Source: Escherichia coli
GTDB lineage: Bacteria; Pseudomonadota; Gammaproteobacteria; Enterobacterales; Enterobacteriaceae
DNA length: 46,125 bases
Assembly (NCBI RefSeq): GCF_965641715.1
Contig: NZ_OZ282456.1
Reading direction: 5' to 3' (one strand)
The position numbers were made by a program, and so were the translations under genes. The notes beneath the pieces were generated by a model. It saw only the letters and a program-made list of their open reading frames with translations, made no database searches and was not told the origin of the DNA. Shown piece by piece: positions 6,922 to 45,956 of this stretch (the stretch's first letter is position 1; the number at the start of each line of letters is the position of its first letter).

Positions 6922-6934
6922 CCACAAGATGTGG
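6922..6934. promoter_or_regulatory. Operator-like inverted repeat CCAC-AAGAT-GTGG
   Basis: Same ACCAC-N5-GTGGT architecture as the three sites between the repressor and cro-like genes. Confidence 0.35.
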
Positions 6935-7012
6935 TTACGATTTCAATACGGGGTTGATATGAAAAAGCGGTATGACGAATTTGATGGTTTCTAAGAGACG
7001 TTGACCTCTAAT

Positions 7013-7037
7013 GAGGCGGGTTGGTTGCCCGCCTTTT
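7013..7037 (+). terminator. Rho-independent terminator
   Basis: GGCGGG-TTGGTTG-CCCGCC hairpin followed by TTTTTT. Confidence 0.5.
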
Positions 7038-7049
7038 TTATGGCTACAT

Positions 7050-7199
7050 TTAAACGCTGGAACGCATTAAACCTTTCAGAACTGCTTCACGTACCCATTC
7101 TGGCCTGGTTGATAGCAAGGCAAATAAACGCCCAGCTTTGAGTCGCTTGAGGTCTATTAGACGAGTTTTTAGTAACCGTGTATATTGTTGTTCGGACAT
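7050..7199 (-). CDS. Small hypothetical protein (49 aa) downstream of parG
   Basis: ATG at 7199 with GGGG 8-9 nt upstream; track frame 7050-7232. Confidence 0.25.
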   Translation of the reverse strand: MSEQQYTRLLKTRLIDLKRLKAGRLFALLSTRPEWVREAVLKGLMRSSV

Positions 7200-7261
7200 A
7201 ACAAATTCCCCTTGTTGTGTCGCGACGGCCAACAGTTGGCGCTGGAGGTCGTCACCTTCTC

Positions 7262-7510
7262 TTACTTCTGGTTGTATTGAGCCTTGAGTAACTCAAAAGA
7301 TTTTGTCAGCACTTCTTTCAATGACATATCCATTGAACTGGCGAACGTTTTGTACTCGCGTTTAAATTCAGGGTCGACGTTAAACGCCATTTGTGCCCCA
7401 CCTGATTTGGTTCTGGTTGGCGTTTCAGTCGGGTCGAAAACCTGCGGTTGTTCGATCGATGGCGGTACGCCTTTGCTGTTCTTCTTTGGTGGTTTTGATG
7501 GTGCGGCCAT
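7262..7510 (-). CDS. Partition protein, ParG-like ribbon-helix-helix centromere-binding protein
   Basis: 82 aa; disordered N-tail then FNVDPEFKREYKTFASSMDMSLKEVLTKSFELL, matching the RHH pattern of type Ib ParG; lies immediately downstream of parA. Confidence 0.5.
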   Translation of the reverse strand: MAAPSKPPKKNSKGVPPSIEQPQVFDPTETPTRTKSGGAQMAFNVDPEFKREYKTFASSMDMSLKEVLTKSFELLKAQYNQK

Positions 7511-7553
7511 GTGTATCCCCTCTTATATAAATCTATAAAACTATAATTATATA

Positions 7554-8207
7554 TTACGCGGCAGTAGTCAGAGCCTCAAGCTGGTTGATAATCCCCTGAA
7601 TAACGTCGTCTGCCTTTTTGCGTGGCGCAACGTATGAGCATTCAATGAGGCTTAAGCCCTTATCCTGAGCTTTGCTCAGAGCTGGCTTGTGGGGAATGTA
7701 CTTATCGACAACAAAGTATGGCGTATTAGCCAGGTACTCTTGGGCTTCAATATAGTCAGCTTCATTTTCAGCCGCGCCGGAAAACACCATGCAAATTTTC
7801 TTGATTGGCACACCCTTTTTAACGATGCCGTGAGCAGTGTTAACGGTGGTTTCCAGGTCATCGGTAGAGAATCGGGTTGGCAAAATAACCATATCCAGAA
7901 ATTCAGATAGCTTCGGTACTGATTCAGATGCGTAGGCACCGCCATCAACGATAACCAGGTCGTATACTTCTGATTCGATGATTTTCTGGACTTGTGATGG
8001 TGTGCCGCACGGCTGCGCCGCGATTGCTGGTTCGATATTGTTGGCCATTCTGCGTTGTACCCAACGCGTTACCGTTCCGTTAAGCACATCCATATCGATC
8101 AGGCATACATTCCAGCCAGCCTTTGCATAAGCAACTGCTAAAGCACGGGCAATTGTTGATTTGGTTACGCCGCCTTTTCCGTTGAAAATACCTACAGAGA
8201 TAGTCAT
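7554..8207 (-). CDS. parA: Partition ATPase ParA/ParF (Walker-type)
   Basis: Deviant Walker A GKGGVTKST near the N-terminus; ATG at 8207 has GGAG 9 nt upstream (track start 8222 lacks SD). Confidence 0.8.
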   Translation of the reverse strand: MTISVGIFNGKGGVTKSTIARALAVAYAKAGWNVCLIDMDVLNGTVTRWVQRRMANNIEPAIAAQPCGTPSQVQKIIESEVYDLVIVDGGAYASESVPKLSEFLDMVILPTRFSTDDLETTVNTAHGIVKKGVPIKKICMVFSGAAENEADYIEAQEYLANTPYFVVDKYIPHKPALSKAQDKGLSLIECSYVAPRKKADDVIQGIINQLEALTTAA

Positions 8208-8222
8208 TTGTCGAGACTCCAT

Positions 8223-8345
8223 GTGTTTGGTTATATAATTCTATAAATCTATATTTATAGAACGAGGTAAGCATAACCAACTTTTTGGCGGATGGAAAGC
8301 GTTTTATATAATTATATAAATCTATAATCATATAAGCGGGCGTTA
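8223..8345. repeat. AT-rich repeat array upstream of parA; candidate partition site/operator
   Basis: Two copies of TTATATAATT(C/A)TATAAATCTATA at 8231-8260 and 8304-8335. Confidence 0.4.
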
Positions 8346-8357
8346 GCCCGCTTGCAG

Positions 8358-8732
8358 TCAGAGGTCAGCTATCGTTGATATCAGTTGATTTGCTAGCTGT
8401 CGCTGTTTACGTGAGAGGGTTAGAGCAGCTTCTGAGCGGTCGCTAAGAGGAGTGTTTTCATCAAGAATCATGAGGCATACAGAAATAATAGCCCTGTTAT
8501 ATGCCATCAATGGCTGGCACAGCTTCGATACCGCTGGCACATCGTATTGCAAGGCCGTTTTGAGGCAGACTTTTTGTTCTGATGCCAGATGAAGGATAGA
8601 TTCTATCCAGTCGATATCTTTCTCATTATCAATGATTTGGCATAACATACACTCAATCGCTATGTTCAACGCTTGGATTTCGATTCCAGCAGTGATCAGA
8701 GTTTCGTTTTTATTGGCTGTATGTAATTCCAT
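8358..8732 (-). CDS. Hypothetical protein downstream of the repressor
   Basis: 124-aa ORF; no recognisable family. Confidence 0.4.
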   Translation of the reverse strand: MELHTANKNETLITAGIEIQALNIAIECMLCQIIDNEKDIDWIESILHLASEQKVCLKTALQYDVPAVSKLCQPLMAYNRAIISVCLMILDENTPLSDRSEAALTLSRKQRQLANQLISTIADL

Positions 8733-8764
8733 GCGTAGCCTCTTTTATACTTTCACATGTTGTC

Positions 8765-8785
8765 AAAACCACAAATCGTGGTTTT
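8765..8785. promoter_or_regulatory. Operator-like palindrome AAAACCAC-AAATC-GTGGTTTT
   Basis: ACCAC-N5-GTGGT site in the intergenic gap downstream of the repressor gene. Confidence 0.4.
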
Positions 8786-8824
8786 TTTGAGCGTAGAAAT
8801 GCACGGCTTTCGCCGTGCTGTGTA

Positions 8825-9481
8825 TCATAACCAGTTGACAACACTAACTACGCGGCCCAGAACTTTATAACGCTTAAATTCCTCGTTATTCAGATGCTTA
8901 GTGTTCATTTCAGCATCCCTTTCGGTTGACAGCATAACAGCATTGTCACCCGGTATGACTCTACAGTGCCTCAAAACAACCAGGCCATTTCTGTCTTCAA
9001 GGGCATAGATCCCCTCATGAATCTCTGTATCGTCTGTATTAATCAGGACTTGGGAGCCAGGGGATATTGTTGGTGACATTAACTCATCGTTGCTCTGGAG
9101 AACTGACAGAGACGATGGGTTGATGTTCTTGCTTCGTAGAATCTCCTGTTCTATCGCCAGCACTGGCTTTTCTCCGGCGTGCGATGCTATGTCATTTTTT
9201 ATAGCTACAAGCCCAGGAATAACAGGAGCGTTAGTATTCTGGGGTGGGAACGGGTTATCTGTTAAGCACGCGATATAAGGCGCTGATGCTTTCAGGGCGT
9301 GCGCGATTTTCTTGATGGCAGGTATCGATGGTTGTCTTAATCCGGCCTCATAGTTCTGCAAGGTGCTTAAGCCTATTCCAGTGACTTGCTGGAGATCTCC
9401 GGCAGTCATGCCGGATTGTTTCCGTAGAGTCTGAATGCGCAGACCTATTTCTTTCTTGATGTTCTCGTCGTTGCTTTTCAT
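8825..9481 (-). CDS. CI-like prophage repressor (HTH XRE domain plus S24 LexA-like peptidase domain)
   Basis: N-terminal HTH (LRKQSGMTAGDLQQVTGIGLSTLQNYEAG); C-terminal domain with the layout of self-cleaving CI/LexA repressors. Confidence 0.8.
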   Translation of the reverse strand: MKSNDENIKKEIGLRIQTLRKQSGMTAGDLQQVTGIGLSTLQNYEAGLRQPSIPAIKKIAHALKASAPYIACLTDNPFPPQNTNAPVIPGLVAIKNDIASHAGEKPVLAIEQEILRSKNINPSSLSVLQSNDELMSPTISPGSQVLINTDDTEIHEGIYALEDRNGLVVLRHCRVIPGDNAVMLSTERDAEMNTKHLNNEEFKRYKVLGRVVSVVNWL

Positions 9482-9518
9482 GTCTCATCAATCGTGAATG
9501 GTGGGTTATTTATACATT

Positions 9519-9636
9519 ACCACATTTAGTGGTTTTCACATGGTAAGACGAGAGGTGGACCACAAATAGAAGGTTATTTTTTGTTTCGCCCATTGAAAAA
9601 CCCACGATATGTGGTTTTAATACCACATATCGTGGT
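9519..9636. promoter_or_regulatory. Divergent immunity control region with three operators: ACCACATTTAGTGGT (9519-9533), CCACGATATGTGG (9602-9614), ACCACATATCGTGGT (9622-9636)
   Basis: Three copies of the 5-bp inverted repeat ACCAC/GTGGT with 5-bp spacer, plus a half-site at 9558-9566, between divergent repressor and cro-like genes. Confidence 0.55.
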
Positions 9637-9655
9637 TTTAACTGGAGTTCGTTAA

Positions 9656-10150
9656 ATGACCTTTCAGGAGTGGGTTGACGAAAATGGAGGCCAAATTGGT
9701 GTTGCCAGAAAGTTTGGCTTTACGTCATCACTGATTGGTGCCTGGTATCGCTTCGAGAGATTCCCTCGTGCGGATAACCTGACGCTGCTGGTGGCGTATT
9801 CGGAAGGCCGGATTAACGTCCAGCAATGGGCGGCAGATTTTGCCGAACGTCAGCGCCAGCGTAGCGATGGCACATCGGTTCGGCAGAACAAGATCAAAGG
9901 GAATCTCCCTGTTAACTGCTTATCAAGGCTGAAAGCGGTTTTCTCTGAGCTGGGGATGCCTGCGGAGCGTTGCAATCTACGCGGTCCGCGATTCATTGCT
10001 CGCTGGAAACACTCACACGTAACCGTTTCAGAGGTTCGTGATGCGATTACCGTGCTGGAGCTTAAGAATAAAGATTCCAGCGATATCGAGCTGATTCATA
10101 AGGAGATTAGCAACGCCCGGCGTTCAGCACTTGGGAGGCTTGAGGAATGA
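9656..10150 (+). CDS. Cro/CII-like early regulator (N-terminal Cro/YdaS-type HTH)
   Basis: Divergent from the repressor; N-terminus NGGQIGVARKFGFTSSLIGAWY resembles Cro/YdaS HTH. Confidence 0.4.
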   Translation: MTFQEWVDENGGQIGVARKFGFTSSLIGAWYRFERFPRADNLTLLVAYSEGRINVQQWAADFAERQRQRSDGTSVRQNKIKGNLPVNCLSRLKAVFSELGMPAERCNLRGPRFIARWKHSHVTVSEVRDAITVLELKNKDSSDIELIHKEISNARRSALGRLEE

Positions 10151-10662
10151 TGATTCTGGCCTTCTTTGGTGATAATCACCAGATTCAATCGCAGGTGGTG
10201 CACTACCTTGATCAAACGATTAAAGGATTTGTTATCGATCATATTGATAACGATAGCAAACATCTATCTGTAGATCAGAAAATTGGACGTGTGCAGCGAC
10301 TGGTTGCCAGCCGTAACAGACGTGACACCGTAACAGTAGTCACGGGGATAACGGAGGTCATGGAGTACCAGATGTTGCTGCATCGTGGAGCTGTTTTCTG
10401 CGTTCTTCCTGGCATTCTGCCAGCAATTCTTGCTCGTGGTTTTGTCCCTATTGATGAGTCGTTTTTATATGTAACCCCAAGCCGTTCCCTTCTGGATACG
10501 GAGGCGAAGCGTCGCATTTATATGATGCCGGACGAGGCATTTTCTGAATGTTACCGCCGTGAAATGAGGTTGGGTAAACGAGAAGTGTCTGTTGTTCGTG
10601 ATGGCAGGTTTTTAAGAAGCCGCACGGTGAAAAGCACCAGAAATGACGGGGGCCATCAATGA
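10147..10662 (+). CDS. Hypothetical early protein
   Basis: 171-aa ORF with start overlapping the upstream stop (ATGA). Confidence 0.4.
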   Translation: MMILAFFGDNHQIQSQVVHYLDQTIKGFVIDHIDNDSKHLSVDQKIGRVQRLVASRNRRDTVTVVTGITEVMEYQMLLHRGAVFCVLPGILPAILARGFVPIDESFLYVTPSRSLLDTEAKRRIYMMPDEAFSECYRREMRLGKREVSVVRDGRFLRSRTVKSTRNDGGHQ

Positions 10663-10892
10663 GTAGTTATGTTCGCGGTGCTGCGATGCATTGCCAGAAT
10701 TCCCAATTCTGGCGCTTTCTGACCAGTAAAACAGGGAAGAACGTTTCAAACAGTTCTGAGGCCTCTGTGATTCTGCGTGAGTTTTGCGGGATCTCATCCC
10801 GTAAAGAGCTGGCAAAGAACTACGCGGCCAGAAGCATGTATGTCCAGTTAATCAACGAGTTCAACCTCTTTATCAATGGTAAGGGGCGCTGA
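10659..10892 (+). CDS. Hypothetical protein
   Basis: 77-aa ORF, overlapping start and stop with neighbours. Confidence 0.3.
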   Translation: MSSYVRGAAMHCQNSQFWRFLTSKTGKNVSNSSEASVILREFCGISSRKELAKNYAARSMYVQLINEFNLFINGKGR

Positions 10893-11296
10893 TGAACGGA
10901 CGTACACCAACGAAGAAAGAGAAACTTTATATACAAGCGGTGCTCACTCACGTGGGTTGCATAGCTTGCATTATTGATGGCCGTGAAATTGAGAATCCAG
11001 AGCTGTGGACGGAGCTACATCACGATCCTGATTACGGCAGCGTTGATGAGAATTGCCACTTTCATAGCTTTGGATTGTGCGCACCACATCATCGCGGTGT
11101 TGTGCCTGGTGGTGGGCGCGTGCCTCCGCATATCGCCGTTCGTCACCCTCCCCTGAGTAATTGTGCTCGCTTTGTTGAGCGTTATGGCACCGATGAATTT
11201 TTGTGTGCGCAGACGTGGGAGCTGTTGCCGCAGTCAGTTAAAGACGAAATTGGGTTTGATCTTAGTCTTGGTGAAGTACCAGGGGATACCAAATGA
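10892..11296 (+). CDS. Cys/His-rich protein, possible HNH/Ref-like nuclease
   Basis: Motifs CIACI...HHD...CHFH...CAPHHRG suggest a metal-binding nuclease fold; family uncertain. Confidence 0.3.
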   Translation: MNGRTPTKKEKLYIQAVLTHVGCIACIIDGREIENPELWTELHHDPDYGSVDENCHFHSFGLCAPHHRGVVPGGGRVPPHIAVRHPPLSNCARFVERYGTDEFLCAQTWELLPQSVKDEIGFDLSLGEVPGDTK

Positions 11297-11625
11297 GATA
11301 TACCGGCTTTCGCAAACCAGCGACCAGGAAAAGCAAATACGGCAATAAAAAAACGGTTGTCGATGATATCGCTTTTGATAGCAAAAAAGAGGCTGATTAC
11401 TACTGCGAACTGAAGTTACTGAGAAAAGCTGGCCGCGTTGTGACGTTTCTTATGCAGGTGCCTTTTCATCTGCCTGGTGGTGTCGTTTATAAACTTGATT
11501 TCATGGTGTTTTATGACGATGGGACGATTGATTGTGTCGACACTAAAGGTGTGCGAACAGACGTCTACATCATGAAGAAAAAGCAGGTAGAGGCGCTTTA
11601 TCCCGTCACGATACGGGAGATCTGA
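11293..11625 (+). CDS. DUF1064-family phage protein
   Basis: KYGNKKTVVDDIAFDSKKEADYYCELKLL matches the DUF1064 N-terminal signature as recalled. Confidence 0.5.
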   Translation: MRYTGFRKPATRKSKYGNKKTVVDDIAFDSKKEADYYCELKLLRKAGRVVTFLMQVPFHLPGGVVYKLDFMVFYDDGTIDCVDTKGVRTDVYIMKKKQVEALYPVTIREI

Positions 11626-11628
11626 ACA

Positions 11629-12006
11629 GTGAGACGCGATCTGGATAGCTTGTTTGAGCTATGGGCGCTGTGGGTGCGCAATGGCTGCAACGCCCGTAGC
11701 GGTTTCGCGTCGATGTTAGAAATGATGATGGTTACGCGTTGCCAGTTTACCGGAGGGGGCGGCGCACCAAATGACTCACTGGAAACCAGTATCGAGGGAG
11801 CTGTGACGGCCCTCACGGTAGTTGATGAGACTGCGGCGCTGGTTGTCCGAATTGAATACGGGGCGTGGGAGATTCGGGGCCTCGACATAAATGCACCGCA
11901 TATTGATAAAGCCCACGCCCTTTCTCTTAGTCTCAGACAGTATCGCCGGAAGCTGGCAAAAGCCAGGGCGTATGTTGTCGACTATTTGAAAAAGCGAAGA
12001 GAGTGA
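11629..12006 (+). CDS. Putative antitermination protein Q-like
   Basis: 125 aa; N-terminal L.ELWALW pattern and size resemble small Q antiterminators; position just upstream of a promoter-leader copy and the late genes. Confidence 0.4.
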   Translation: MRRDLDSLFELWALWVRNGCNARSGFASMLEMMMVTRCQFTGGGGAPNDSLETSIEGAVTALTVVDETAALVVRIEYGAWEIRGLDINAPHIDKAHALSLSLRQYRRKLAKARAYVVDYLKKRRE

Positions 12007-12066
12007 AAGTGTCATTTTGAGCTGTTTTGATGGTGTGTAGACATCGGGAACATCGAAAATCTATAA

Positions 12067-12175
12067 ATATATAATTATAGATTTATATAAAAAGTGCTTT
12101 ACAGGTGGGAAAAAATTTCCTAAGGTTATACCCGAAACCGAGCGATACCCGCCCTGGTTAAACCGGAGAAATCTG
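12067..12175 (+). promoter_or_regulatory. Copy B of the triplicated promoter-leader element
   Basis: About 97 percent identical to 3004-3113 and 16786-16895 over about 100 bp; one base shorter before the ATG. Confidence 0.55.
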
Positions 12176-13243
12176 ATGAATAAACAAGTAATTATTTCTG
12201 ACTGGATCAACAACCCTAACAGCCTGTTAAGCACTGATACTGGCTACCTATTACGCCATGTTAATGGTCGTATGGTCAAAAGCGATGAGCACGAAACCTT
12301 TTTCTTTGTTGAAGACGATGGGCGTATCTATGAGGATGGTTACTCTTATGAAGCCCAAACTGGTTGTATCCCTGCGGAGCTGGTGGACGTAACAGAAGAT
12401 CTGCGCAAAGCATGGCTTGAACAGCAGCAGCGCGGAGATGATTACGTAAACACCTATCAGGAACGCCAGAACGCGCGTCTTGCCCGATATATTGCTCGTG
12501 CAGAAAAAGCCAGAAAAGAAGGTGCGGTAGCGCATAAGCGAGCGCATGACCTGTTGGATGTGATCCCGTTAGGCCAGCCGATTTTAGTTGACCATTATAG
12601 CGCGAAAGGCCATCGCCGCCGTTTGTCTAAAGCTGATGCGTTATTCAGAAAAGCGTTTGTTGAATGCGAAAGTAAAGCATCACACTACGAGAGCAAAGCC
12701 GCAGGTGTTGGTCGTAATGGAATTTCGTCTGATGATCCTGATGCGCTATTTAAGTTGCTTCGTAAGCTGCAAGGCTGCATGAAGTCACACGTCAAAATGA
12801 AGGCCGCAAATAAGGCCATTCGCAAATACAAAAAAGACCAATTACAGCAGCTTTCTGCATTAATCGATCTCAGGTTTACAGAAAGCGAAGCCAAAGAGTT
12901 ACTGGCCGGAGATTTCTGTGGGCACATCGGATTCCCTTCATACGCACTGAGCAACAATAAGGCCGAAATCAAACGACTACAGAGCCGTATTAAGGAGCTT
13001 GAATCGGTCAAGTCTGTAACAGGAGCACAGCGCGAAGAATACGACGGCTTTTCTATGGAGATAGATCCAGAGGATAACCGCATCCTGTTTTATTTCCCTG
13101 GCAAACCAGAGGCAAACATTCGTTCGCTGCTTAAATCACGCGCCTTTAAGTGGAGTCCAACCCGTAATGCATGGGTTCGCAAGATTACTCCAAACGCCCT
13201 GGCTGATGCCCGATATCTGAAAGAATCGCTATTGAAAGCCTGA
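12176..13243 (+). CDS. DUF3560-family protein
   Basis: Segments GQPILVDHYSAKGHRRRLSKADA, ISSDDPDALFKL and MKAANKAIRKYKK match DUF3560 as recalled. Confidence 0.5.
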   Translation: MNKQVIISDWINNPNSLLSTDTGYLLRHVNGRMVKSDEHETFFFVEDDGRIYEDGYSYEAQTGCIPAELVDVTEDLRKAWLEQQQRGDDYVNTYQERQNARLARYIARAEKARKEGAVAHKRAHDLLDVIPLGQPILVDHYSAKGHRRRLSKADALFRKAFVECESKASHYESKAAGVGRNGISSDDPDALFKLLRKLQGCMKSHVKMKAANKAIRKYKKDQLQQLSALIDLRFTESEAKELLAGDFCGHIGFPSYALSNNKAEIKRLQSRIKELESVKSVTGAQREEYDGFSMEIDPEDNRILFYFPGKPEANIRSLLKSRAFKWSPTRNAWVRKITPNALADARYLKESLLKA

Positions 13244-13320
13244 CAGTAAGCCTACGGCGGGATATCTCCCGCCGTATATAGAATTATATATTTATATAAA
13301 TGTATAAGGACGCCTCGACA

Positions 13321-13602
13321 ATGAAACGCAAAATTATTAACCCCCAAGATGTGATTAATTTCCTGACCGATCACCCATGTTCAAAAGTGGACGTAATCGC
13401 GGAGCACATTGGTGTGTCGCAGAACTCTATGCGTTGCAGACTGAGAAGCATGGTTGCCGAAGGACAGATAACAACCAGGAAAATAAATGGTTGCCTGTAC
13501 TACTCCGCTAAACCGGAATTGCCATTTGGCATGAATCCTAACTCCATGTTGTTTAACACCTTATTAGCCAAAGTTAAGCCGTTGAGAGGGGCTGTGGCAT
13601 GA
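13321..13602 (+). CDS. Hypothetical protein (possible winged-helix DNA-binding)
   Basis: Track frame 13300-13602; the 13300 start lies inside an AT-rich motif, ATG at 13321 preferred. Confidence 0.35.
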   Translation: MKRKIINPQDVINFLTDHPCSKVDVIAEHIGVSQNSMRCRLRSMVAEGQITTRKINGCLYYSAKPELPFGMNPNSMLFNTLLAKVKPLRGAVA

Positions 13603-13992
13603 GCATCAAAACCCATACCGGAATAATCATTACCAATGATGGTGAGAAAAGAGTGAAGTTGCGCGAAACGCCGACAACCTGGTGTGTTGGTCCGAAAGAA
13701 ACATAATGAAGCACATACAACCGAAAACATGGCAGAAACTGGACTCTATGGGCGTTAAGTTGGAGAAGATTACTCAACTTAAGCAGTGGCATATCGGCGA
13801 ATATTATGGAAGTCCTGGTCGGGATGTTCGGTTGGTCAAAAGTTAAGTATTGTTTTTTTATTGATCGATTAACCACAATATGAAGGTTTTTTTATGGGAA
13901 AACCTTGTTTTAGGTGGTAACTGGGTGTAGTGTTTCATTTAACGTAGTAAAACTGCGTTAAGCGATTACCGCGTAATTTGTTGCTTTATGAA

Positions 13993-14023
13993 GCCCTGCC
14001 TTTTCGGCGGGGCTTTTTTTTTT
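13993..14023 (+). terminator. Strong Rho-independent terminator immediately upstream of the lysis cassette
   Basis: 8-bp stem GCCCTGCC/GGCGGGGC (one G-U), loop TTTTC, followed by a 10-T run; holin ATG 14 bp downstream. Confidence 0.65.
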
Positions 14024-14036
14024 AACGAGGATTTCA

Positions 14037-14432
14037 ATGTCAGCAGAACCAATTTCCGGTACGGCCGTTGCTGCTGGTGGCCTGATGGGTGCCAGCGTTT
14101 TTGGTATTGCAACTGGTATTGATTACGGCGTTGTATTCGGGGCATTTGCTGGCGCTGTTTTCTATGTTGCTACAGCGGTGAATATTAGCCGTCTCAAGCT
14201 GATTGGCTATTTCTTTACATCGTTCATTGTTGGAGTGATTGGAGCGCCGTTAGTTGGCTCATTTCTTGCCAAATGGACCAGCTACAACGATCGTCCTCTG
14301 GATGCGCTTGGTGCGGTTATTGTGGCTGCATTGACCATTAAAATCCTCACGTTCGTAAACAGCCAGGATCTCGGTAGCATCTTTGGAATGCTTTCCCGCT
14401 TACGTGGAGGGGGTTCAAATGGTAAGCAGTGA
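14037..14432 (+). CDS. Holin-like membrane protein
   Basis: 131 aa with several hydrophobic segments; first gene of the lysis cassette. Confidence 0.45.
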   Translation: MSAEPISGTAVAAGGLMGASVFGIATGIDYGVVFGAFAGAVFYVATAVNISRLKLIGYFFTSFIVGVIGAPLVGSFLAKWTSYNDRPLDALGAVIVAALTIKILTFVNSQDLGSIFGMLSRLRGGGSNGKQ

Positions 14433-14715
14433 CCCGTCAGCACTGATTAATGCGGTGCTTTGCACAGTAATAGTAATGGCGCTGATGCTTTATCGACGGA
14501 AAGACTCCAGGCATCGTCCATTTGTTTCCTTTCTGGCTTATATCTACGTCATTGTATACGCCAATGTTCCCTTCCGTTATGTGTTCGGTCTTTATCAAGA
14601 ATCCCACTGGCTGGTGGTTATTGGAAATCTGATTATCTGCATCGTTGTTCTGTATTTCAGGGGCAATCTGGCGCGGATAGTTGACGCATTAGGGTTTAAT
14701 CATGACCAAAGATGA
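14419..14715 (+). CDS. Second membrane protein of the lysis cassette (holin/antiholin-like)
   Basis: ATG at 14419 with GGAGG 8 nt upstream; about three predicted transmembrane segments; track frame 14383-14715. Confidence 0.4.
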   Translation: MVSSDPSALINAVLCTVIVMALMLYRRKDSRHRPFVSFLAYIYVIVYANVPFRYVFGLYQESHWLVVIGNLIICIVVLYFRGNLARIVDALGFNHDQR

Positions 14716-15244: not shown

Positions 15245-15519
15245 CTGGTTTGAAGGCCGTTTTGTCATTTATTGGCACAATTATATTGGTTGCATTTGGC
15301 GCGTTTGGTTTTGGTCGTATGAAGGGGCGAGAAAAGGCCGAAGATGAAGCTGAAAAGCAGCGCATTAATGAGAATGCAGCCGCCGTAAAAGCCACTGCGG
15401 AGCGGCGTATAGAAGTGACAAAAGAGGTGGGGAATGTACAGCAGAGTGTTAACCATATGGCTGATGACGATGTTGATCGCGAGCTGCGGGAGTCGTGGAA
15501 GCGTCCCGGTGGTGGTTGA
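15241..15519 (+). CDS. i-spanin (Rz-like)
   Basis: N-terminal transmembrane helix then charged coiled-coil region; follows the endolysin with overlapping start. Confidence 0.5.
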   Translation: MTGLKAVLSFIGTIILVAFGAFGFGRMKGREKAEDEAEKQRINENAAAVKATAERRIEVTKEVGNVQQSVNHMADDDVDRELRESWKRPGGG

Positions 15520-15803: not shown

Positions 15804-15812
15804 ATCAAATAT

Positions 15813-16783: not shown

Positions 16784-16785
16784 AA

Positions 16786-37617: not shown

Positions 37618-37619
37618 TT

Positions 37620-38240
37620 ATGAATGATTTAGAAACATTATTACGTCAGACTATAAGAGTTGGCGTTGTTTCTGATATTGATGATGGTGATGTTACAGCA
37701 AGAGTTACTTTCGATGATCAGGATAACGTCACTTCGGCAAAGTTATCAGTTATTGTGAAAAATACGGATAAGAATGCTGATTACTGGATGCCAGATATTG
37801 GTGAGCAAGTTTTGTGTATCTTTCATCCCGCAGGGCCGCAACAAGGTTTTATTCTTGGTAGTTTTTATGATGAAACACAGAAGCCGCCATCTAATACGGT
37901 TAATAAACGCGTCATTAGATTTAATAACGGAACTCGTATTGAGGTAGACAGAGAATCTAATTTACTCCTTGTTGATGCTGTCGGAGATGTAACCGTTAAG
38001 GCTACAGGAACCGTAACTATTGATGCTCCAGAAACCATCATTACCGGAAATGCTACAGTTGAAGGATTACTAACCTTCAAAGGTGGAATGAAAGGATCTT
38101 CTGCTGGAGGTGTTGCAGCTACAATTTCTGGGGATGTTAAGGTTGTTGGTGGTGATATAGATGTTGATGGGATTAAATCTAAAGGCCACCATCACACAGC
38201 TCAGGGGGAATACGCTCCGACAACGGAGGCTCAGGCATGA
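37620..38240 (+). CDS. Baseplate spike protein (gpV-like)
   Basis: 206 aa; beta-helix-like repeats GDVTVKATGTVTIDAPE...GDVKVVGGDIDVDG. Confidence 0.7.
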   Translation: MNDLETLLRQTIRVGVVSDIDDGDVTARVTFDDQDNVTSAKLSVIVKNTDKNADYWMPDIGEQVLCIFHPAGPQQGFILGSFYDETQKPPSNTVNKRVIRFNNGTRIEVDRESNLLLVDAVGDVTVKATGTVTIDAPETIITGNATVEGLLTFKGGMKGSSAGGVAATISGDVKVVGGDIDVDGIKSKGHHHTAQGEYAPTTEAQA

Positions 38241-38704
38241 TTGTGGGTATGCTTGGTACAATGCCTTTTGTTGCCTCATCAATAGTGGTGAATACGTTCA
38301 ACAATTTTAAAAGGACGTCAAAGCGTCGTGTTGCGCGCCATGATGTTATTGGGCTTAAACCTGTTCTGGAGGATATAGGTCCAGATCTGGATGAAGTTAG
38401 TTTTAATATGCGGTTGGATACAACACTTGGCATTGTTCCATTGGCTGCGCTTTCATTACTTAGGACAATGCAATCAATTCAGGAAGTAAATCCTGTTGTA
38501 ATTGGTATTCAGTATTTTGGTAATTTTATAATTACAGATATAGAGGAATCATGGACTTATTTCGGTCCAACTGGGAATCCACGAGTGATTATCGTCGGCA
38601 TTAAATTACAGGAAGTCGGACAGACCTCTCTGAAAGAAGCATTAGTTGATATTGCTGGCAATATAGAGTCAAAAACTAGAAGTGCGTTAGGTAAATTATT
38701 ATGA
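38237..38704 (+). CDS. Baseplate protein (Mu gp46-like)
   Basis: 155 aa between spike and gp25-like genes. Confidence 0.45.
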   Translation: MIVGMLGTMPFVASSIVVNTFNNFKRTSKRRVARHDVIGLKPVLEDIGPDLDEVSFNMRLDTTLGIVPLAALSLLRTMQSIQEVNPVVIGIQYFGNFIITDIEESWTYFGPTGNPRVIIVGIKLQEVGQTSLKEALVDIAGNIESKTRSALGKLL

Positions 38705-39021
38705 ATAATACGTTTACCATATCATCACCTTCTTACTCGATTGATTGGTCGCCCAAAACAGTTGTAGAAGAAGTTTTGCAAAATGTCTCTACTATTATTA
38801 ATACTCAGATTGGCACTGTACCATATGCCAGAAAATTAGGAGTTAATTCAAGTCTTGTTGATAGCCCCAGCCCAATTTTTATTGCTACAGCAACACGAGA
38901 AATAATTCAAAAAATTAGTGAGTTTGAGCCTAGAGCGATTATCCATTCTGTTACTTTTGAAAGAACGGACGTTTCTGATGGTTTTATTAGGCCAAAACTT
39001 GTGATAGGAGTTAGAGAATGA
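38701..39021 (+). CDS. Baseplate wedge protein (gpW/gp25-like)
   Basis: 106 aa; size and position typical of gp25-like proteins. Confidence 0.65.
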   Translation: MNNTFTISSPSYSIDWSPKTVVEEVLQNVSTIINTQIGTVPYARKLGVNSSLVDSPSPIFIATATREIIQKISEFEPRAIIHSVTFERTDVSDGFIRPKLVIGVRE

Positions 39022-40142
39022 CGTTGCCGCGCGGTGGTTTGCCAGATATTACTTTCGCAGATTCTAACCCGACTGATATAACAACTCGTTCAATCAGGGC
39101 TTTTGAGAGTATAACAGGTGAAACATTAGCACCTGCTGATCCACGTAGATTATTCATCTTGTCATTGTGTGAGATTATTATACAGCAAAGAAAAGCTATC
39201 GATTTTTCTGCAAAACAAAACCTTCTTACATATGGTGGGGGTGAATATCTCGATCATATAGGCTATCTGACGGATACGCCTAGGCTGGAAGCTCAATCTG
39301 CCTTGACTACATTTGAGTTTAATCTGTCAACAAAATTATCTGGGATATATACAATACCTGCTGGCACTCAAATTTCAACTGGAAATAGTGTTATTTTCCA
39401 AACAGATGTTTTGTTGGAAATACCAGCTGGGAAAACAGTTGGTACAGTCTCAGGATATGCTGTTATACCTGGTTTATCGGGGAATGGCTTTTTACCAGGG
39501 CAAATAAATGAGTTGGTGACTCCGTTGCCGTATGTTTCCAGCGTAAGGAATCTAACAACATCTAATTCTGGTGCTGATACAGAGTCAGATGATAATTATG
39601 CTGAAAGAATAAAACTTTCGCCGGAAAAACTATCTACAGCAGGGCCGGAGGATTCTTATAAATATTGGACAAGAACAGCCAATCAGAATATAAAAGATGT
39701 GAATGTATATACACCATCGCCCGGAACTGTAGAAATCCGTTCTTTGTTAGAGAACGGAGATATACCTTCTGATGAATTATTAGAGCAGATAAATAGCGTT
39801 CTCTCTGCAACTAATATTCGACCATTCACAGATAAAGTTCTTGTTAAGAAACCAGAGAGCATTGAATACGATATAATAATTAAATACTGGATTAACTCAT
39901 CGGACAAAAACAGAACAACTTTAATTCAAGGTGAGGTTGAGAAAGCTATTGATGAGTATAAACAATGGCAACGTTCTGTTATGGGAAGAGATATAAATCC
40001 AGATGAAATTATTCAACGTTTAAAAAATGCTGGGGCTAAAAGATTAGAAATATCAAGTCCTGTATTTACTGTGGTTGGAGAGACGCAGGTCGCCAGAGAG
40101 AGAAATATAAATTGCCAGTATGCGGGGTTAGAGGATGGCTGA
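39018..40142 (+). CDS. Baseplate protein J-like
   Basis: 374 aa following the gp25-like gene. Confidence 0.7.
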   Translation: MTLPRGGLPDITFADSNPTDITTRSIRAFESITGETLAPADPRRLFILSLCEIIIQQRKAIDFSAKQNLLTYGGGEYLDHIGYLTDTPRLEAQSALTTFEFNLSTKLSGIYTIPAGTQISTGNSVIFQTDVLLEIPAGKTVGTVSGYAVIPGLSGNGFLPGQINELVTPLPYVSSVRNLTTSNSGADTESDDNYAERIKLSPEKLSTAGPEDSYKYWTRTANQNIKDVNVYTPSPGTVEIRSLLENGDIPSDELLEQINSVLSATNIRPFTDKVLVKKPESIEYDIIIKYWINSSDKNRTTLIQGEVEKAIDEYKQWQRSVMGRDINPDEIIQRLKNAGAKRLEISSPVFTVVGETQVARERNINCQYAGLEDG

Positions 40143-40716
40143 TATCTTTAATGTTGGCTTGTTGGATGTTTTACCTCCTAACTTAGCTAGAGATCCCAAC
40201 GTGATAGCTATGTCGAAAGCTATCGATGATGAACTACAAGCAATTAACAATTTAATATATAAGACAGAAATATATAGCGTTGTTGATAACCTGGATTCAG
40301 TTGTTCTCGATCATTTAGCCTGGCAATGGAATGCTGATACATGGAGGGATAGTTGGCCTGTATCGTTAAAGCGTTCTGTTTTTAAATCAATAATACGAAC
40401 AAAGCGAATAAAGGGTACAAGGGCAGCGGTTGAAGATGTAGTAAATAGCTTGGGTGGAGAGGTAAACATAACAGAATGGTTTGAAACATCACCACCTGGC
40501 GAACCATATACAGCCTCAATTGTTGCTTCGATTAACTCTTTTGATGGTGCCGTTCCTTCGAAAGAGATGTTGGAAGATACGTTAAGAAGTATCAAGAGCG
40601 CAAAGTCGGCAAGAACATTATTTACATTTTCGCAAGCAGCCAATGTTTCTGGTGGTGTCGGTATTGTTGGTGCTTGTCAGCCTGTGTCTTATGTACGATT
40701 AATTGGCGAGTGCTAA
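40135..40716 (+). CDS. Tail protein I-like
   Basis: 193 aa following J, preceding the tail fibre. Confidence 0.55.
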   Translation: MADIFNVGLLDVLPPNLARDPNVIAMSKAIDDELQAINNLIYKTEIYSVVDNLDSVVLDHLAWQWNADTWRDSWPVSLKRSVFKSIIRTKRIKGTRAAVEDVVNSLGGEVNITEWFETSPPGEPYTASIVASINSFDGAVPSKEMLEDTLRSIKSAKSARTLFTFSQAANVSGGVGIVGACQPVSYVRLIGEC

Positions 40717-40746
40717 TTCGCAATTTGTTAATTCAAGGAATTAAGC

Positions 40747-43065
40747 GTGAGTAAATTATTCTTTACGATGACTGACGCCGGGCGTCAGGAGCTGGTTAAT
40801 GCCAACAAAACAGGAACAAATAAAGTTGAGATTGTTTCTGTTGGTTTAGGTAGTAGATATTATGTCACGTCAACTTCACAAACAAATATAACAAACGAAA
40901 TAAAACGACTTACCACAATAGGTGGCAAAGTTGTTTCCCCTGATACAATTCATGTAACAGCGAAGGATGATAGTAAAGATGAGTATGTTGTCCATACAAT
41001 AGGATTGTATACGAATAAGGGTACGTTGTTTGCTGTATACTCACAAGAACAAGCAATAATAAATAAAGCATCATCTACTATCGCTTTAATATCAAGTGAT
41101 ATAGCAATTAAAACTCTTGATACTAAAAATATTACATTTGGTGATATTGAGTTTATTAATCCTCCCGCGACCGAAACTGTTGTTGGGGTGGCAAGGTTTG
41201 CTAATGAACAAGAAATTGATGCAGGTACAGATGATTCCCTTGCTGTTTCAGCAAAGCGGCTTAAGCAAGCCATTGTGAAACATGAGCAATCACGTAATCA
41301 TCCCGATGCAACTTTAACCTCAAAAGGCTTTGTTCAACTTAGCAGCGCCACCAATAGCTCGTCTGAAACGCTTGCTGCGACGCCTAAGGCTGTTAAGGCA
41401 GCATATGACCTGGCTAATGGCAAATACACCGCACAGGACGCTACCACGGCGCGAAAAGGGATTGTTCAGCTCAGTAGCGCCACTAACAGTGATTCGGAAA
41501 CGCTGGCCGCAACACCAAAGGCTGTTAAGGCAGCGTATGATCTTGCGGCCGGAAAGGCTCCGTCCAATCACACGCATTCGTGGGAGCAGATAACAAATGT
41601 GCCTGTAGCTTCACTGACAGTAAGGGGAATCACTCAGCTCAGTAGTGCAACCAACAGCACGTCTGAAACACTGGCCGCGACATCGAAAGCGGTAAAGGTG
41701 GTAATGGATGAAACGAACAAGAAAGCGCCCTTAAACAGTCCTGCGCTGACCGGAACGCCAACAACACCAACTGCGCCAAAAGGTACTAACAATACTCAGA
41801 TCGCAAGCACGGCTTATGTTATGGCTGCGATCGCTGCCCTCGTGGACTCGTCGCCTGACGCACTGAATACGCTGAACGAGCTGGCTGCGGCGTTGGGCAA
41901 CGACCCGAATTTTGCGACCACCATGACTAACGCGCTTGCGGGTAAGCAACCGAAAGATGCCACCCTGACGGCGCTGGCCGGGCTTGCTACTGCGGCAGAC
42001 AAGTTTCCGTATTTTACGGGGAATGATGTCGCCAGCCTGGCAACCCTGACAAAAGTCGGGCGGGATATTCTTGCGAAATCGACCGTTGCTGCCGTTATCG
42101 AATACCTCGGTTTGCAGGAAACGGTAAATCAGGCTTCTGGCGCATTACAGAAAAACCAGAACGGTGCAGATATTCCGAATAAAGATAAATTCATACAAAA
42201 CACAGGGGCCTGTCGTGCATTTAGCGGTCAGACTGATATCGATGGTTCACAAGGTGCATGGTCGACAGTTGCATTTATCTCGTGGCTGGAGAATAACGGA
42301 GCTTTCCGACATCCATACTGGATGTGTAAAGGGTCATGGTCCTATGCCAGAAACAGGGTTATTACGGATACCGGTTGTGGAAATATCTGCCTTGCCGGAG
42401 CCGTGATTGAGGTTATGGGAACCCGCGGCGCAATGACCATACGCGTTACCACGCCGAGCACGTCCAGCGGTGGCGGAATTACTAACGCTCAATTCACTTA
42501 TATTGATCATGGTGATGCTTATGCCCCCGGCTGGCGACGAGACTACAACACGAAAAACCAGCAGCCTGCATTTGCTTTAGGGCAAACAGGAAGCAGGGTT
42601 GCAAATGATAAAGCTGTTGGCTGGAACTGGAATAGCGGTGTTTATGATGCAGATATCAGCGGTGCATCGACATTAATCCTCCACTTCAATATGAATACGG
42701 GGAGCTGCCCTGCTGTACAGTTCCGCGTGAATTACAGGAACGGCGGTATTTTTTATCGTTCAGCGCGTGATGGTTATGGATTTGAGGCTAACTGGTCAGA
42801 GTTTTACACCACGACCCGCAAACCCTCTGCGGGAGATGTTGGTGCATACACGCAGGCAGAATGTAACTCAAGGTTTATTACAGGTATTCGCCTTGGCGGT
42901 CTGTCATCTGTTCAGACATGGAATGGTCCCGGCTGGTCTGACAGGTCAGGTTATGTCGTTACGGGTTCAGTTAACGGAAACCGTGATGAATTAATTGATA
43001 CAACTCAGGCAAGGCCAATTCAGTATTGCATTAATGGGACGTGGTATAACGCGGGGAGTATTTAA
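40747..43065 (+). CDS. Tail fibre protein (constant N-terminal part plus currently expressed variable C-terminal part)
   Basis: 772 aa; three copies of the fibre repeat [19 protein letters not shown]; crossover site inside the coding sequence at 42104-42128. Confidence 0.8.
42104..42128. other. Left inversion crossover site (gix/cix-like) inside the tail-fibre gene
   Basis: ACCTCGGTTTGCAGGAAACGGTAAA; matches the reverse complement of 45158-45182 at 24 of 25 positions. Confidence 0.7.
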
Positions 43066-43067
43066 TT

Positions 43068-43601
43068 ATGATGCACTTAAAAAATATTACTGCTGGCAAC
43101 CCTAAAACAAAAGAGCAATACCAGCTAACGAAACAATTTAACATCAAATGGCTTTATACAGAGGATGGGAAAAACTGGTATGAGGAACAAAAGAACTTTC
43201 AGCCTGATACGTTGAAAATGGTCTATGACCACAACAACGTTATTATTTGTATTGAAAAGGATGTTTCAGCAATTAATCCAGAAGGCGCAAGCGTCGTTGA
43301 GGTTCCTGATATTACAGCAAATCGCCGGGCTGATATTTCTGGTAAATGGATGTTCAAAGATGGCGTAGTGGTAAAGCGAACTTATACCGAGGAAGAGCAG
43401 AGGCAGCAGGCGGAAAATGAAAAGCAAAGCCTGCTACAGCTCGTTAGGGATAAAACCCAGCTATGGGACTCACAGCTACGGCTGGGCATCATTTCCGACG
43501 AGAATAAACAAAAATTAACCGAGTGGATGCTCTATGCGCAGAAAGTCGAATCTACAGACACCTCCAGCCTGCCAGTAACATTTCCCGAACAACCTGAATG
43601 A
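43068..43601 (+). CDS. Tail fibre assembly protein (current orientation)
   Basis: 177 aa; paralogous to the minus-strand 43630-44160 product (shared [13 protein letters not shown] and [12 protein letters not shown] segments). Confidence 0.7.
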
Positions 43602-43629
43602 GACAAGGCCCGATCGCGGGCCTTAATTT

Positions 43630-44160
43630 TTATTCAGGCTTTTGTGGCCATTCAGGATTTGCCGTATCCACACGGCTGACCAGAACACTGTAGCGTTCCC
43701 ATGCTTCCAGTCGTGTGCGTTCCTCGTCTGTTGCCATATTCAGCCTGACAGCGCGTTCCAGCGGCTGGATGACTGATTCAGCTTCGGAAAGCAATGCGGC
43801 CTTTTGTGATTCGCCTTGTTGTTGCTGTTCGTCTGCCGTATAAATCCGTTTAACTACAGCTCCATCCTTAAACATCCACTTTCCTGAATCATCAGCGCGG
43901 CGGTTGGCTGTAATATCAGGAACCTCAACGACGCTAAAACCTTCAGGGTTAAGCGTGGAGGCATCTTTAGTGATGGCGACAATAATATTATTTGCATCGT
44001 AAACAATCTTTATTGTGTCTGGCTGAAAGTTTTTCACTTCCTCATACCAGTTTTTATCGTCTTCGGACCATAACCAGATAACATCAAAATTCTTTGTTAG
44101 CTGATATTGTTCTTTCGTTTTAGGATTTCCAGACTTAATATTTTTTAAATGCTGCATCAT
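43630..44160 (-). CDS. Tail fibre assembly protein (alternative orientation)
   Basis: 176 aa; paralogue of 43068-43601 on the opposite strand. Confidence 0.7.
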
Positions 44161-45156
44161 TTACACCTGTGCGACGTTATACCATGTGCCATTGATGTAT
44201 TTTTGTATTGGCCTGAAGATGGCTTCATCATCGCCATCTACTTCACCAATGATTCTTAATCCGGTAATTGCGTGTCCGGCTTTTTCATAACGACCACCAC
44301 GCGCCATCAATTGAACAACTCGCGTACCCAGGCGAACATCTCTCACATATCTGGAATCAAAATTGCCATAGTTGCCAGGAATAACTTGCGAGCCACAAAG
44401 CCAGTTACCGTTATTGTCCATGTACGCCTGACCATCGGTGCCATTGGCTGTCCTTGAGTTATTAATCATGTAAAAACCAAACTGGTAGTTACCAAGTCCA
44501 CCGACAAAAAATTTGCGTTCTGCATGGTCTTGTCTTAACAAAGCCTGCGCAGAACTTGTTGATACTGCGTTTCTACCAAAAATGACATTCTGGTTTCGCA
44601 TATCAATCCATGAGGTTGAGCCACTATTAATAGCAAACCTGTTTGCATACACCCAGGCGTTAGTTGTTATATCTCCTGTAACATCCAGACCATGCCCCAT
44701 AGTTATGCGGCCAGTTCTGAGATTAAGCGTAAAGGGACGTAGTGGCCCTATATTACCATTTTCCCCCTCATTCTCTCGTGTAGGGATGATATGCAGGCAT
44801 TCTTCAGAACGGCGAAAAATGGCACCAAAAGATGAATTAAATATCCTCAGTGCATTGACTGTCGATATTTTTACTTCACTGCTGAAAAGAGCTTTAACAA
44901 GAACATACAAAGCATCCCATTTAAGATTCATCAGGTCTTTTGTTGTGGTGCTTTGTTTGCTTCTCCATTTGAAATATTCATTGCCGTTGTCGCCTGTCTC
45001 AAACCACATGTATGAATCAGTGTCACCATCGGCATCATTTTTAAATCCAATCTTCGCCCAGTCAGTATTTCGAATCCAGGCAAGGATTGAGTCATTTTCA
45101 AAAGTAAGCCCACCGGACAAAGTATCGCCATTTTTTTGCACGGCGTTACCAGCCCT
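44161..45156 (-). CDS. Alternative tail-fibre C-terminal segment (silent; no own start, would fuse to the constant part after inversion)
   Basis: Open minus-strand frame continues to the crossover site and encodes LGLQETVN there, identical to the plus-strand fibre at the left site. Confidence 0.65.
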   Translation of the reverse strand, partial: RAGNAVQKNGDTLSGGLTFENDSILAWIRNTDWAKIGFKNDADGDTDSYMWFETGDNGNEYFKWRSKQSTTTKDLMNLKWDALYVLVKALFSSEVKISTVNALRIFNSSFGAIFRRSEECLHIIPTRENEGENGNIGPLRPFTLNLRTGRITMGHGLDVTGDITTNAWVYANRFAINSGSTSWIDMRNQNVIFGRNAVSTSSAQALLRQDHAERKFFVGGLGNYQFGFYMINNSRTANGTDGQAYMDNNGNWLCGSQVIPGNYGNFDSRYVRDVRLGTRVVQLMARGGRYEKAGHAITGLRIIGEVDGDDEAIFRPIQKYINGTWYNVAQV

Positions 45157-45157
45157 G

Positions 45158-45182
45158 TTTACCGTTTCCTGTAAACCGAGGT
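45158..45182. other. Right inversion crossover site (gix/cix-like)
   Basis: TTTACCGTTTCCTGTAAACCGAGGT; contains TTCCTGTAAACCGAGGTTTT, resembling the Gin/Cin crossover sequence as recalled. Confidence 0.7.
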
Positions 45183-45255
45183 TTTTGCGAATTGCCTCTG
45201 TGTCGTCTGAACGATATTTTTTCCCGCTTTTAGCAACAATCGCGGTTTAGAAAGT

Positions 45256-45810
45256 ATGCAATATGGTTATGCGAGGGTGTCAACTTTTGACCAGAATTTG
45301 GAATTACAACTGGAGGCGCTCAGGAGTTTAGGATGTGACCGGATTTTTGAAGATAAAATATCCGGTGCTAAATCAAAACGACCAGGACTTGATAAGCTAC
45401 TTAAGGTGTTACAGCCGGGCGATACGGTTATTGTCTGGAAGCTGGACCGAATGGGGCGTTCTCTGATTCATCTTGTTGATTTACTTAACCATTTTTTATC
45501 AAACAACATTGAGTTTATTTCGATTACGGAAGGGATAAAAATTAGCACTTCAATTGGCCGCTTTGCCTACACGATGCTGAGTGCAGTCGCAGAGATGGAG
45601 CGGGAAAATATGATTGAAAGAACGCGTGCAGGATTGGCGGTGGCAAGGGCTAACGGCAGGATAGGAGGACGCCGCTCAAAATTGGCACCAGAGCAATGGG
45701 AACAGATCGGAAGGCTTATTGCGAATGGTGTTTCACGTAAGCGGATAGCGATTATCTTCGATGTTACCTTATCCACGCTTTACCGCAGGTTTCCGGCTGG
45801 GAATCATTGA
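45256..45810 (+). CDS. Serine recombinase, DNA invertase (Gin/Cin/Hin family)
   Basis: 184 aa; N-terminal YARVSTFDQNLELQ with catalytic Ser context, C-terminal HTH; adjacent to the invertible segment. Confidence 0.85.
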   Translation: MQYGYARVSTFDQNLELQLEALRSLGCDRIFEDKISGAKSKRPGLDKLLKVLQPGDTVIVWKLDRMGRSLIHLVDLLNHFLSNNIEFISITEGIKISTSIGRFAYTMLSAVAEMERENMIERTRAGLAVARANGRIGGRRSKLAPEQWEQIGRLIANGVSRKRIAIIFDVTLSTLYRRFPAGNH

Positions 45811-45941
45811 CTGGAGTTAGGCCAGTAGTATGATGCTCGCAAAACGAGATCCAATTTAGATCCTTTTACTGGTGGATTATCGTTCGATCAGTGAGAGACT
45901 TCGTGCATGACCGAAAGTGTTGTGGTAGAGTTCTCTTAAAA

Positions 45942-45956
45942 CCACGTAACGTGGTT
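45942..45956. promoter_or_regulatory. Operator-like inverted repeat ACCAC-GTAAC-GTGGT
   Basis: Same architecture as the immunity-region operators; between the invertase and the window end. Confidence 0.35.

Follow-up and report, generated by a model that had tools for sequence, protein, structure and literature searches.

A conserved family of palindromic sites, probably operators of the immunity repressor, in a circular phage-plasmid of Escherichia coli

Which protein acts at the ACCAC-N5-GTGGT palindromes found in and around the immunity region of an Escherichia coli phage-plasmid, and which genes would it bring under common control? The stretch of DNA analysed here (contig NZ_OZ282456.1, hereafter the window) comprises 46,125 bp and corresponds to the complete circular E. 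coli plasmid pRHB38-C13_5 (CP055628.1), rotated, reverse-complemented and starting at repA. It carries head, contractile-tail and lysis genes, a DNA invertase, a ParA/ParG-like partition pair, toxin-antitoxin genes and the replication initiator RepA. The analysis revealed a family of six sites that is likely to represent the operators of a CI-like immunity repressor.

Exact matches to ACCACNNNNNGTGGT are located at four positions of the window (8768–8782, 9519–9533, 9622–9636 and 45941–45955), with 0.02 expected, and this number was reached in none of 100 shuffled sequences. The family described in an earlier sequence-only reading is thus real when counted against expectation, and its coordinates were correct save for a one-base shift of the last site, given there as 45942–45956. 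Three copies with a single mismatch lie in the regulatory region, at 9601–9615 (CCCAC...), 6921–6935 (GCCAC...) and 6266–6280 (ACCACATAGCGTGGG). The intervals 9602–9614 and 6922–6934 listed earlier are the perfect CCAC-N5-GTGG cores of the first two, and the third had not been listed. The remaining one-mismatch matches (19066, 36882 and 40912) fall inside structural genes, and their number is of the order that chance alone would give (about 1.3). With a 21-bp weight matrix derived solely from relatives other than the window, six window sites (8768, 45941, 9622, 9601, 9519 and 6266) scored 21.9–31.8 bits, the maximum in 100 shuffles being 18.7 bits. The consensus is a 21-bp palindrome, AAAACCAC-N5-GTGGTTTT, in which the pooled information amounts to 2.0 bits at the CCAC/GTGG cores, 1.1–1.8 bits at the flanking A/T positions, 0.4–0.8 bits at the five central positions and 0.03–0.4 bits outside. 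The arms are 10 bp apart and would consequently be placed on the same face of the DNA.

The comparison draws on a family with about 60 near-identical plasmids of 46–52 kb in PLSDB, one of them, the 48.5-kb NZ_CP009073.1, in E. coli ATCC 25922, and on three infective Yersinia phages (vB_YpM_39, vB_YpM_41 and vB_YpM_44) with 99% identity across the immunity region. Further relatives come from Salmonella, Citrobacter, Klebsiella and Yokenella. The repressor family comprises about 12 clusters (at 90% identity), 60–66% identical to the window protein, and one diverged lineage compared at the DNA level showed about 76% identity. Assignment to the pSLy3 type was ruled out, pSLy3 belonging to the SSU5 supergroup, as was kinship with HQ103, a 32-kb P2-like phage. 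A literature search found no published work on regulation in this phage-plasmid family.

In the alignments of three intergenic regions the arms of the palindromes appear as islands of identity amid diverged flanks, and five sites, termed O1 (9622), O2 (9601), O3 (9519), Od (8768) and Orep (45941), are syntenic in every diverged lineage (six to seven lineages). Deviations from the consensus are specific to each site and conserved, as seen for the CCCAC arm that O2 has in every diverged lineage, and this pattern suggests that the affinities of the sites are tuned in a hierarchy. These features support the view that the palindromes behave as a family of protein-binding operators.

The immunity region contains the following elements:

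8358–8732: orf124.
8768–8782, no strand: Od, an exact match between the cI terminator hairpin and orf124, with the best matrix score (31.8 bits).
8801–8818, minus strand: cI terminator hairpin, GC-rich (GCACGGC-loop-GCCGTGC), followed by a T-run in relatives.
8825–9481, minus strand: gene of the CI-like repressor (218 amino acids), with an HTH_3/XRE N-terminal domain and a degenerate S24-like C-terminal domain.
9519–9533, no strand: O3, an exact match 38 bp upstream of the cI start codon, present in all lineages (25.8 bits).
9559–9573, no strand: half-site block ACCACAAAnAGnAGG, between O3 and O2.
9593–9621, plus strand: putative PR promoter, with -35 TTGAAA (9593–9598), a 17-bp spacer and the -10-like hexamer TTTAAT (9616–9621).
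9601–9615, no strand: O2, filling the 17-bp spacer of PR, with a weaker left arm (29.7 bits).
9622–9636, no strand: O1, an exact match downstream of the -10-like hexamer and over the expected rightward start (30.0 bits).
9656–10150, plus strand: cro-position gene (164 amino acids), the first of the rightward operon, matching phrog_7452 (unknown function).

The 174-bp spacer between the divergent repressor and cro-position genes holds, as the sequence-only reading had it, three sites and one half-site, and these are conserved in the relatives. Its description of a lambda-like tripartite operator does not fit the spacing, which is that of a pair 21 bp apart at PR with a third site 81–83 bp away. 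O1 is present in all seven lineages at a constant 21 bp from O2, and the left arm of O2 reads CTCAC in the close E. coli and Yersinia relatives. The relatives retain, in the putative PR, the TTG of the -35 element, a TTWAWT hexamer and the distance between them. Beyond these, conserved blocks in the spacer are limited to the half-site block and a short CAYGGT beside O3 (seven lineages). Within the half-site ACCACAAA (9559–9566), the left arm and the next bases are conserved in the seven lineages, and the right arm has no match. At 9598–9639 of the window, O2 and O1 are reverse complements over 14 bp and form a perfect inverted repeat (-24.9 kcal/mol, z = -7.4). This arrangement is not shared by the relatives and therefore looks like a recent conversion between both sites. 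The copy downstream of the repressor gene that had been noted before, Od, is conserved in every lineage examined. Its centre differs even among near-identical relatives with the arms unchanged, and it is placed about 35 bp before orf124 and 750–850 bp from the OR sites. The stems of the neighbouring cI terminator hairpin are invariant and its loops vary in the seven-lineage alignment.

The repressor matches the CI-type repressors of phrog_4 over residues 4–217 (E = 9.6e-27) and Pfam HTH_3 (6.8e-11). The match to Peptidase_S24 is weak (4.6e-4), and S24 was seen at E ≤ 0.1 in 11 of 12 members of the family. Conservation is concentrated in the helix-turn-helix (HTH) columns 12–49, where 33 of 38 positions are invariant across the 12 clusters, versus 38 of 110 in the C-terminal domain. 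This invariance of the HTH matches the invariance of the operator arms. Searches of phages by tblastn and of protein databases revealed no close homologue of the repressor outside its own family and no telomere-phage repressor, and the AlphaFold model of its C-terminal domain was too poor to use (predicted local distance difference test score below 50). The cro-position protein gave no match in Pfam or NCBIfam, and its N-terminal HTH-like stretch varies between lineages.

The closed circle changes the meaning of the site at 45941, which in the linear window appears between the invertase and the window end and is actually situated in front of the replication gene. The elements of this region are:

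1–849, plus strand: repA, an IncFII/L-M-type replication initiator (NCBIfam NF040977 RepA_IncFII_LM, 232 bits with a cut-off of 70), annotated as RepA in CP055628.1.
45923–45961, plus strand: candidate repA promoters over Orep, with an extended -10 TGnTAGAGT (45923–45931) or a TATGAT hexamer (45956–45961).
45941–45955, no strand: Orep, an exact match; measured across the circle junction, the repA start follows about 185 bp downstream of it.
45993–46027, minus strand: terminator of a probable countertranscript RNA in the repA leader, a hairpin with a T-run.

Orep has the second-best score of the window (31.0 bits) and is conserved in all six lineages that have repA in reach. The suggestion that the repressor might also act on replication thus gained weight, since the site falls in the repA promoter region and is kept in every lineage examined. 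The TGnTAGAGT element is invariant in a six-lineage alignment and would place Orep at about +2 to +17. The alternative hexamer TATGAT abuts Orep, as the -10-like hexamer does at PR. No copB gene is present, the gene upstream of repA being the DNA invertase. In the leader, the minus-strand hairpin shows a compensatory stem change in relatives (GCAGAT/ATCTGC to GCGGAT/ATCCGC) and, together with its T-run, probably belongs to a countertranscript copy-control RNA, as in IncFII-type replicons. CopA and the other antisense families of Rfam gave nothing near gathering scores in this leader, which (45993–46125 joined to window position 1) hardly varies from one lineage to another. All lineages also share a pair of GATC (Dam) sites, spaced by 11 bp, that lie at 45848–45862 between the invertase gene and the promoter of repA. 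A GATC cluster is also found upstream of repA in a distant replicon of the pKPC_UVA01 type (L054, 343–420). The nearest RepA proteins outside the family share 36–37% identity, and no N5 site was found upstream of the nearest non-phage relatives. On the non-phage KPC plasmid L054 (NZ_CP010379.1), an ACCAC-N8-GTGGT repeat is placed at 497–514, with the gene of a RepA of 37% identity about 170 bp downstream. The repeat is probably coincidental, because matches with variable spacing also occur elsewhere in those plasmids.

The sixth site belongs to the antirepressor region:

4640–6206, minus strand: antirepressor module, with isrK (6133–6206), the C4 antisense RNA (6020–6108), orf75 (5779–6006) and ant (4640–5782).
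6213–6241, minus strand: conserved isrK promoter, TTGACA-17-GACACT; transcription would begin at the isrK 5' end (about 6206).
6251–6259, minus strand: candidate extended -10 of an upstream ant-operon promoter, TGTTAAAAT, which would place Oant at about -22 to -36.
6266–6280, no strand: Oant, an operator-like site with one mismatch at the head of the isrK-C4-orf75-ant operon; its centre lies 67 bp before the isrK 5' end (21.9 bits).

The module was recognised by Rfam matches to the Hfq-binding RNA isrK (65.7 bits) and to C4 (70.8 bits; gathering 45) and by the match of ant to the anti-repressor families phrog_8244/2379. The order isrK-C4-orf75-ant resembles that of P1 immI, and the relatives from Salmonella, Citrobacter and Yokenella have kept it. 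Oant occupies the same position in lineages L017, L019 and L020 and in the Yersinia phage; of the nine close relatives with sequence retrieved as far as this point, seven have it there too. Oant overlaps the -35 region of the candidate TGTTAAAAT promoter, for which an equivalent TGGTAGATT is present in L017, L019 and L020. The TTGACA-17-GACACT promoter is conserved in a five-lineage alignment, and the Rfam isrK model begins at 6206. No convincing LexA box was found at the ant promoter. The best LexA-box-like sequence of the plasmid (6884–6903, CTGT-N8-GCAG) is weak, with eight mismatches to the 20-mer consensus, and is located within a strain-specific cassette, just upstream of the 6921 palindrome.

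The sequence-only reading had placed the antirepressor site at that palindrome, near the head of the antirepressor leader, and had counted it as a copy of the operator family. Neither assignment held, the conserved site of the ant operon being the one at 6266–6280. The elements concerned are:

6865–7045: cassette of 181 bp with a palindrome, a -10-like hexamer, an open reading frame (ORF) of 11 amino acids (MKKRYDEFDGF) and a terminator.
6921–6935, no strand: the palindrome of this cassette, with one mismatch.

With a score of 5.4 bits the 6921 site is at background level, and the cassette is present in six of about 61 family plasmids and absent from all the other relatives fetched. P2-like prophages carry an 80%-identical cassette in front of a DUF4760 gene. 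It occurs in one such prophage on an IncC plasmid (L031, 1501–1670), where a perfect palindrome, ACCACAAAACGTGGT, is followed by TATGAT, a conserved 11-codon ORF (MKK(R/M)YDEFDGF) and a terminator. This prophage shows no other operator site, and its sole match to the repressor is a 22%-identical one, limited to the HTH, to its own P2-type repressor gene. Of the 5,426 complete E. coli genomes, 296 contain the cassette, nearly always in the chromosome; it looks like a leader-peptide or attenuator unit. Given its restriction to six plasmids and its presence in P2-like prophages, the 6921 site appears to have arrived with a mobile cassette and is probably a passenger instead of a conserved member of the regulon.

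The sequence data, the site statistics, the conserved synteny and the placement of the sites relative to genes are the basis on which we infer the binding protein, the promoters and the direction of each regulatory effect, as follows. The repressor would most likely bind the AAAACCAC-N5-GTGGTTTT palindromes as a dimer. Bound at the 9601 and 9622 sites, which bracket the putative -10 of PR, it would shut off the lytic operon on the cro side, probably in a cooperative manner, and O3, next to the repressor gene, is a probable autoregulatory site. At 45941 it would also limit the transcription of repA, at the place where CopB acts in classical IncFII plasmids, so that derepression at induction would give a boost to replication; this control of repA seems rather more probable than not. 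At 6266, over the candidate upstream promoter of isrK-C4-ant, the repressor may hold down its own antagonist, a role to which we give even chances. The 8768 site could serve for looping to the OR sites, as an operator of orf124, or both. The earlier proposal of one repressor for the lytic genes, the antirepressor and possibly replication therefore agrees with the placement of the sites, once the antirepressor site is moved from 6922 to 6266.

The mode of induction may also be approached from the repressor. Cleavable repressors carry G-x-S-M and the catalytic Lys; at the corresponding stretches the members of the 12 clusters show, in an alignment with reference sequences, DELM[A/S]PTI and LRHCR. 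The lack of conserved catalytic Ser and Lys residues suggests that the repressor is probably not cleaved through RecA, and induction would presumably proceed via the antirepressor.

The identity of the binding protein was weighed against other readings. In favour of the immunity repressor, its gene, coding for an HTH_3 and S24-like protein, is flanked by three or four of the sites, and its HTH is almost invariant. Several points stand against it. Relatives with a diverged HTH (heteroimmune) were sought by scans of IMG/VR with the repressor and RepA, by protein searches with the full repressor and its N-terminal domain, and by a pattern scan for the O2-O1 double operator. Only family members of the same specificity were recovered, and all the relatives found keep both the HTH and the arms. 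(The other matches were two loci lacking a neighbouring HTH gene and unrelated GC-rich stretches that seem to form a single family of repeats.) A consensus promoter scan does not call PR, whose -10 is non-canonical and was missed because the hexamer lacks an A at position 2. No consistent position emerged for the cI promoter in the different lineages, because its best -10, TATAAA (9509–9514), is not kept in those of Salmonella and of the Citrobacter freundii type. Oant is absent in lineage L014 and lies upstream of the conserved isrK promoter, not on it. The perfect palindrome in P2-like prophages devoid of this repressor indicates that the palindrome is not exclusive to the system. A further point is a second small HTH protein (3558–3830, 90 amino acids), whose recognition region is also invariant across lineages. 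This protein, or the 164-aa cro-position protein, might be the main ligand of the palindromes, with the CI-like protein recognising another sequence, since Cro-type proteins normally share operators with the repressor. In phiKO2 and PY54, Cro binds just one of the sites (PMC4997575). We regard this reading as improbable: no operator site is found near the gene of the 90-aa protein, the putative recognition stretch of the cro-position protein varies between lineages while the arms do not, and the cI-cro spacer offers no second palindrome for CI.

Even less probable is a role of the palindromes as nucleic-acid hairpins, either weak bidirectional terminators or RNA stem-loops, which would concern chiefly 8768, with its A-run and T-run flanks, and 6921. 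A stem of 5–8 bp may form at each site (-8.9 to -9.8 kcal/mol at 8768 and -9.5 kcal/mol at 6921), some sites were listed as terminator-like by a consensus scan, and the cassette palindrome is kept in the P2-like prophages that lack the repressor. However, these stems are short, with four GC pairs, AT-flanked and with z-scores of only about -2. Most of the sites lie in promoters and only 8768 lies at a gene end, where the T-run is not conserved in relatives and a separate conserved GC-rich hairpin already follows cI, which makes a weak terminator unlikely there. Compensatory evidence for pairing is lacking because the arms never change. It is likewise very unlikely that the palindrome next to repA belongs to the replicon itself, for RepA autoregulation or a host factor, and merely resembles the immunity operators. 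The N8 repeat described above, from a single distant non-phage replicon lineage and likewise upstream of repA at a comparable distance, would favour it, but its arms are spaced differently, the A/T flanks are missing and a further lineage has no such repeat, whereas Orep fits the full 21-bp consensus and, as the immunity sites do, keeps its arms while the centre changes. A partition centromere (parS) was rejected, as the par region has different AT-rich repeats (TTATATAATTCTATAAATCTATA...) at 8231–8335 and 7524–7553. These repeats precede parA and recur in the interval separating it from the ParG-like gene; they probably constitute the partition site or a par operator.

The immunity repressor as the binding protein would have consequences beyond the window. 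This family of phage-plasmids of 46–50 kb is common in E. coli, occurs also in Salmonella, Citrobacter and Klebsiella, and has been isolated in the form of infective Yersinia phages. The operator consensus and the six mapped sites provide a testable wiring diagram of lysogeny, copy-number control and induction, and the consensus is in addition a simple sequence signature to recognise members of the family. The principle of N15 and P1, that the immunity repressor controls replication and the antirepressor as well, would be extended to an IncFII-type replicon. A bolder proposal, which we consider doubtful, is that the repressor took over the job of CopB on this replicon and could cross-regulate unrelated resident prophages through the cassette operator. 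If true, immunity and the copy number of the plasmid would both be set by one protein, which would also license run-away replication upon induction, and the cassette with a perfect operator in P2-like prophages of about 5% of the complete E. coli genomes would supply targets for cross-regulation.

Two further features were seen near the regulatory region. A full-length match to the ryfA RNA (6567–6864, plus strand; 135.5 bits) holds a small hydrophobic ORF (MKKYCMCIFIVVTGALF...). The locus is also present in lineages L019 and L020, a 20-nt stretch is repeated at 6383–6402, and the locus probably encodes a type I toxin acting in plasmid addiction. Downstream of the ParG-like gene, an ORF of 60 amino acids (7050–7232, minus strand) is conserved at the DNA level in L019 and L020, and the annotation of CP055628.1 has no gene there.

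In comparison with known systems, the arrangement is analogous, not homologous, to those of CB in N15 and phiKO2 and of C1 in P1; the design is known from these phages, and the family is uncharacterised. N15 has a separate antirepressor locus, immA, with a small antisense RNA, and the window is organised likewise. N15 differs from it in having its own large RepA and siphovirus morphology. Shared with N15 and phiKO2 are the plasmid prophage, a repressor without autocleavage residues and several palindromic operators between divergent repressor and cro genes. CB of N15/phiKO2 acts at three OR operators and at two operators of the repA promoter, has no autocleavage residues and lowers the copy number (PMC4997575). 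Its sites are 16-bp T-A-N10-T-A sequences, unrelated to those of the window, and the N15 prophage is a linear plasmid (PMC4997575), in contrast to the circular IncFII/L-M-type replicon and contractile tail found here. N15 has two OL sites at repA and the window one, and the third OR-side site of the window, unlike that of N15/phiKO2, is placed 81–83 bp from the pair.

As in P1, a single repressor with scattered sites is combined with an ant operon that follows a C4-family antisense RNA and a small ORF. The operators of P1 C1 are dispersed over the plasmid prophage, including the c4-icd-ant (immI) operon and a replication function. They are asymmetric 17-mers bound by monomeric C1, and P1 controls the lytic replicon (repL), not the plasmid replicon. 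The window, in contrast, has about six symmetric sites and an XRE-type repressor unrelated to C1. The likeness to lambda consists of the divergent repressor and cro-position genes, the palindromes over the putative PR, an adjacent pair suited to cooperative binding, a distal site for possible looping and the order of the HTH and S24-like domains. The system differs from it in the absence of three evenly spaced sites, in a distal element that is a single site 750 bp away and in a repressor that, unlike lambda CI, lacks the catalytic Ser/Lys motifs. Finally, R1 and R100 possess copB, which is absent here, and Rfam CopA is not detected in the window, where the dyad matches the prophage immunity operators. 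With these IncFII plasmids and their CopB the replicon shares a RepA of the IncFII/L-M family, a probable countertranscript RNA in the leader and a dyad-symmetric, putative repressor site on the proximal repA promoter.

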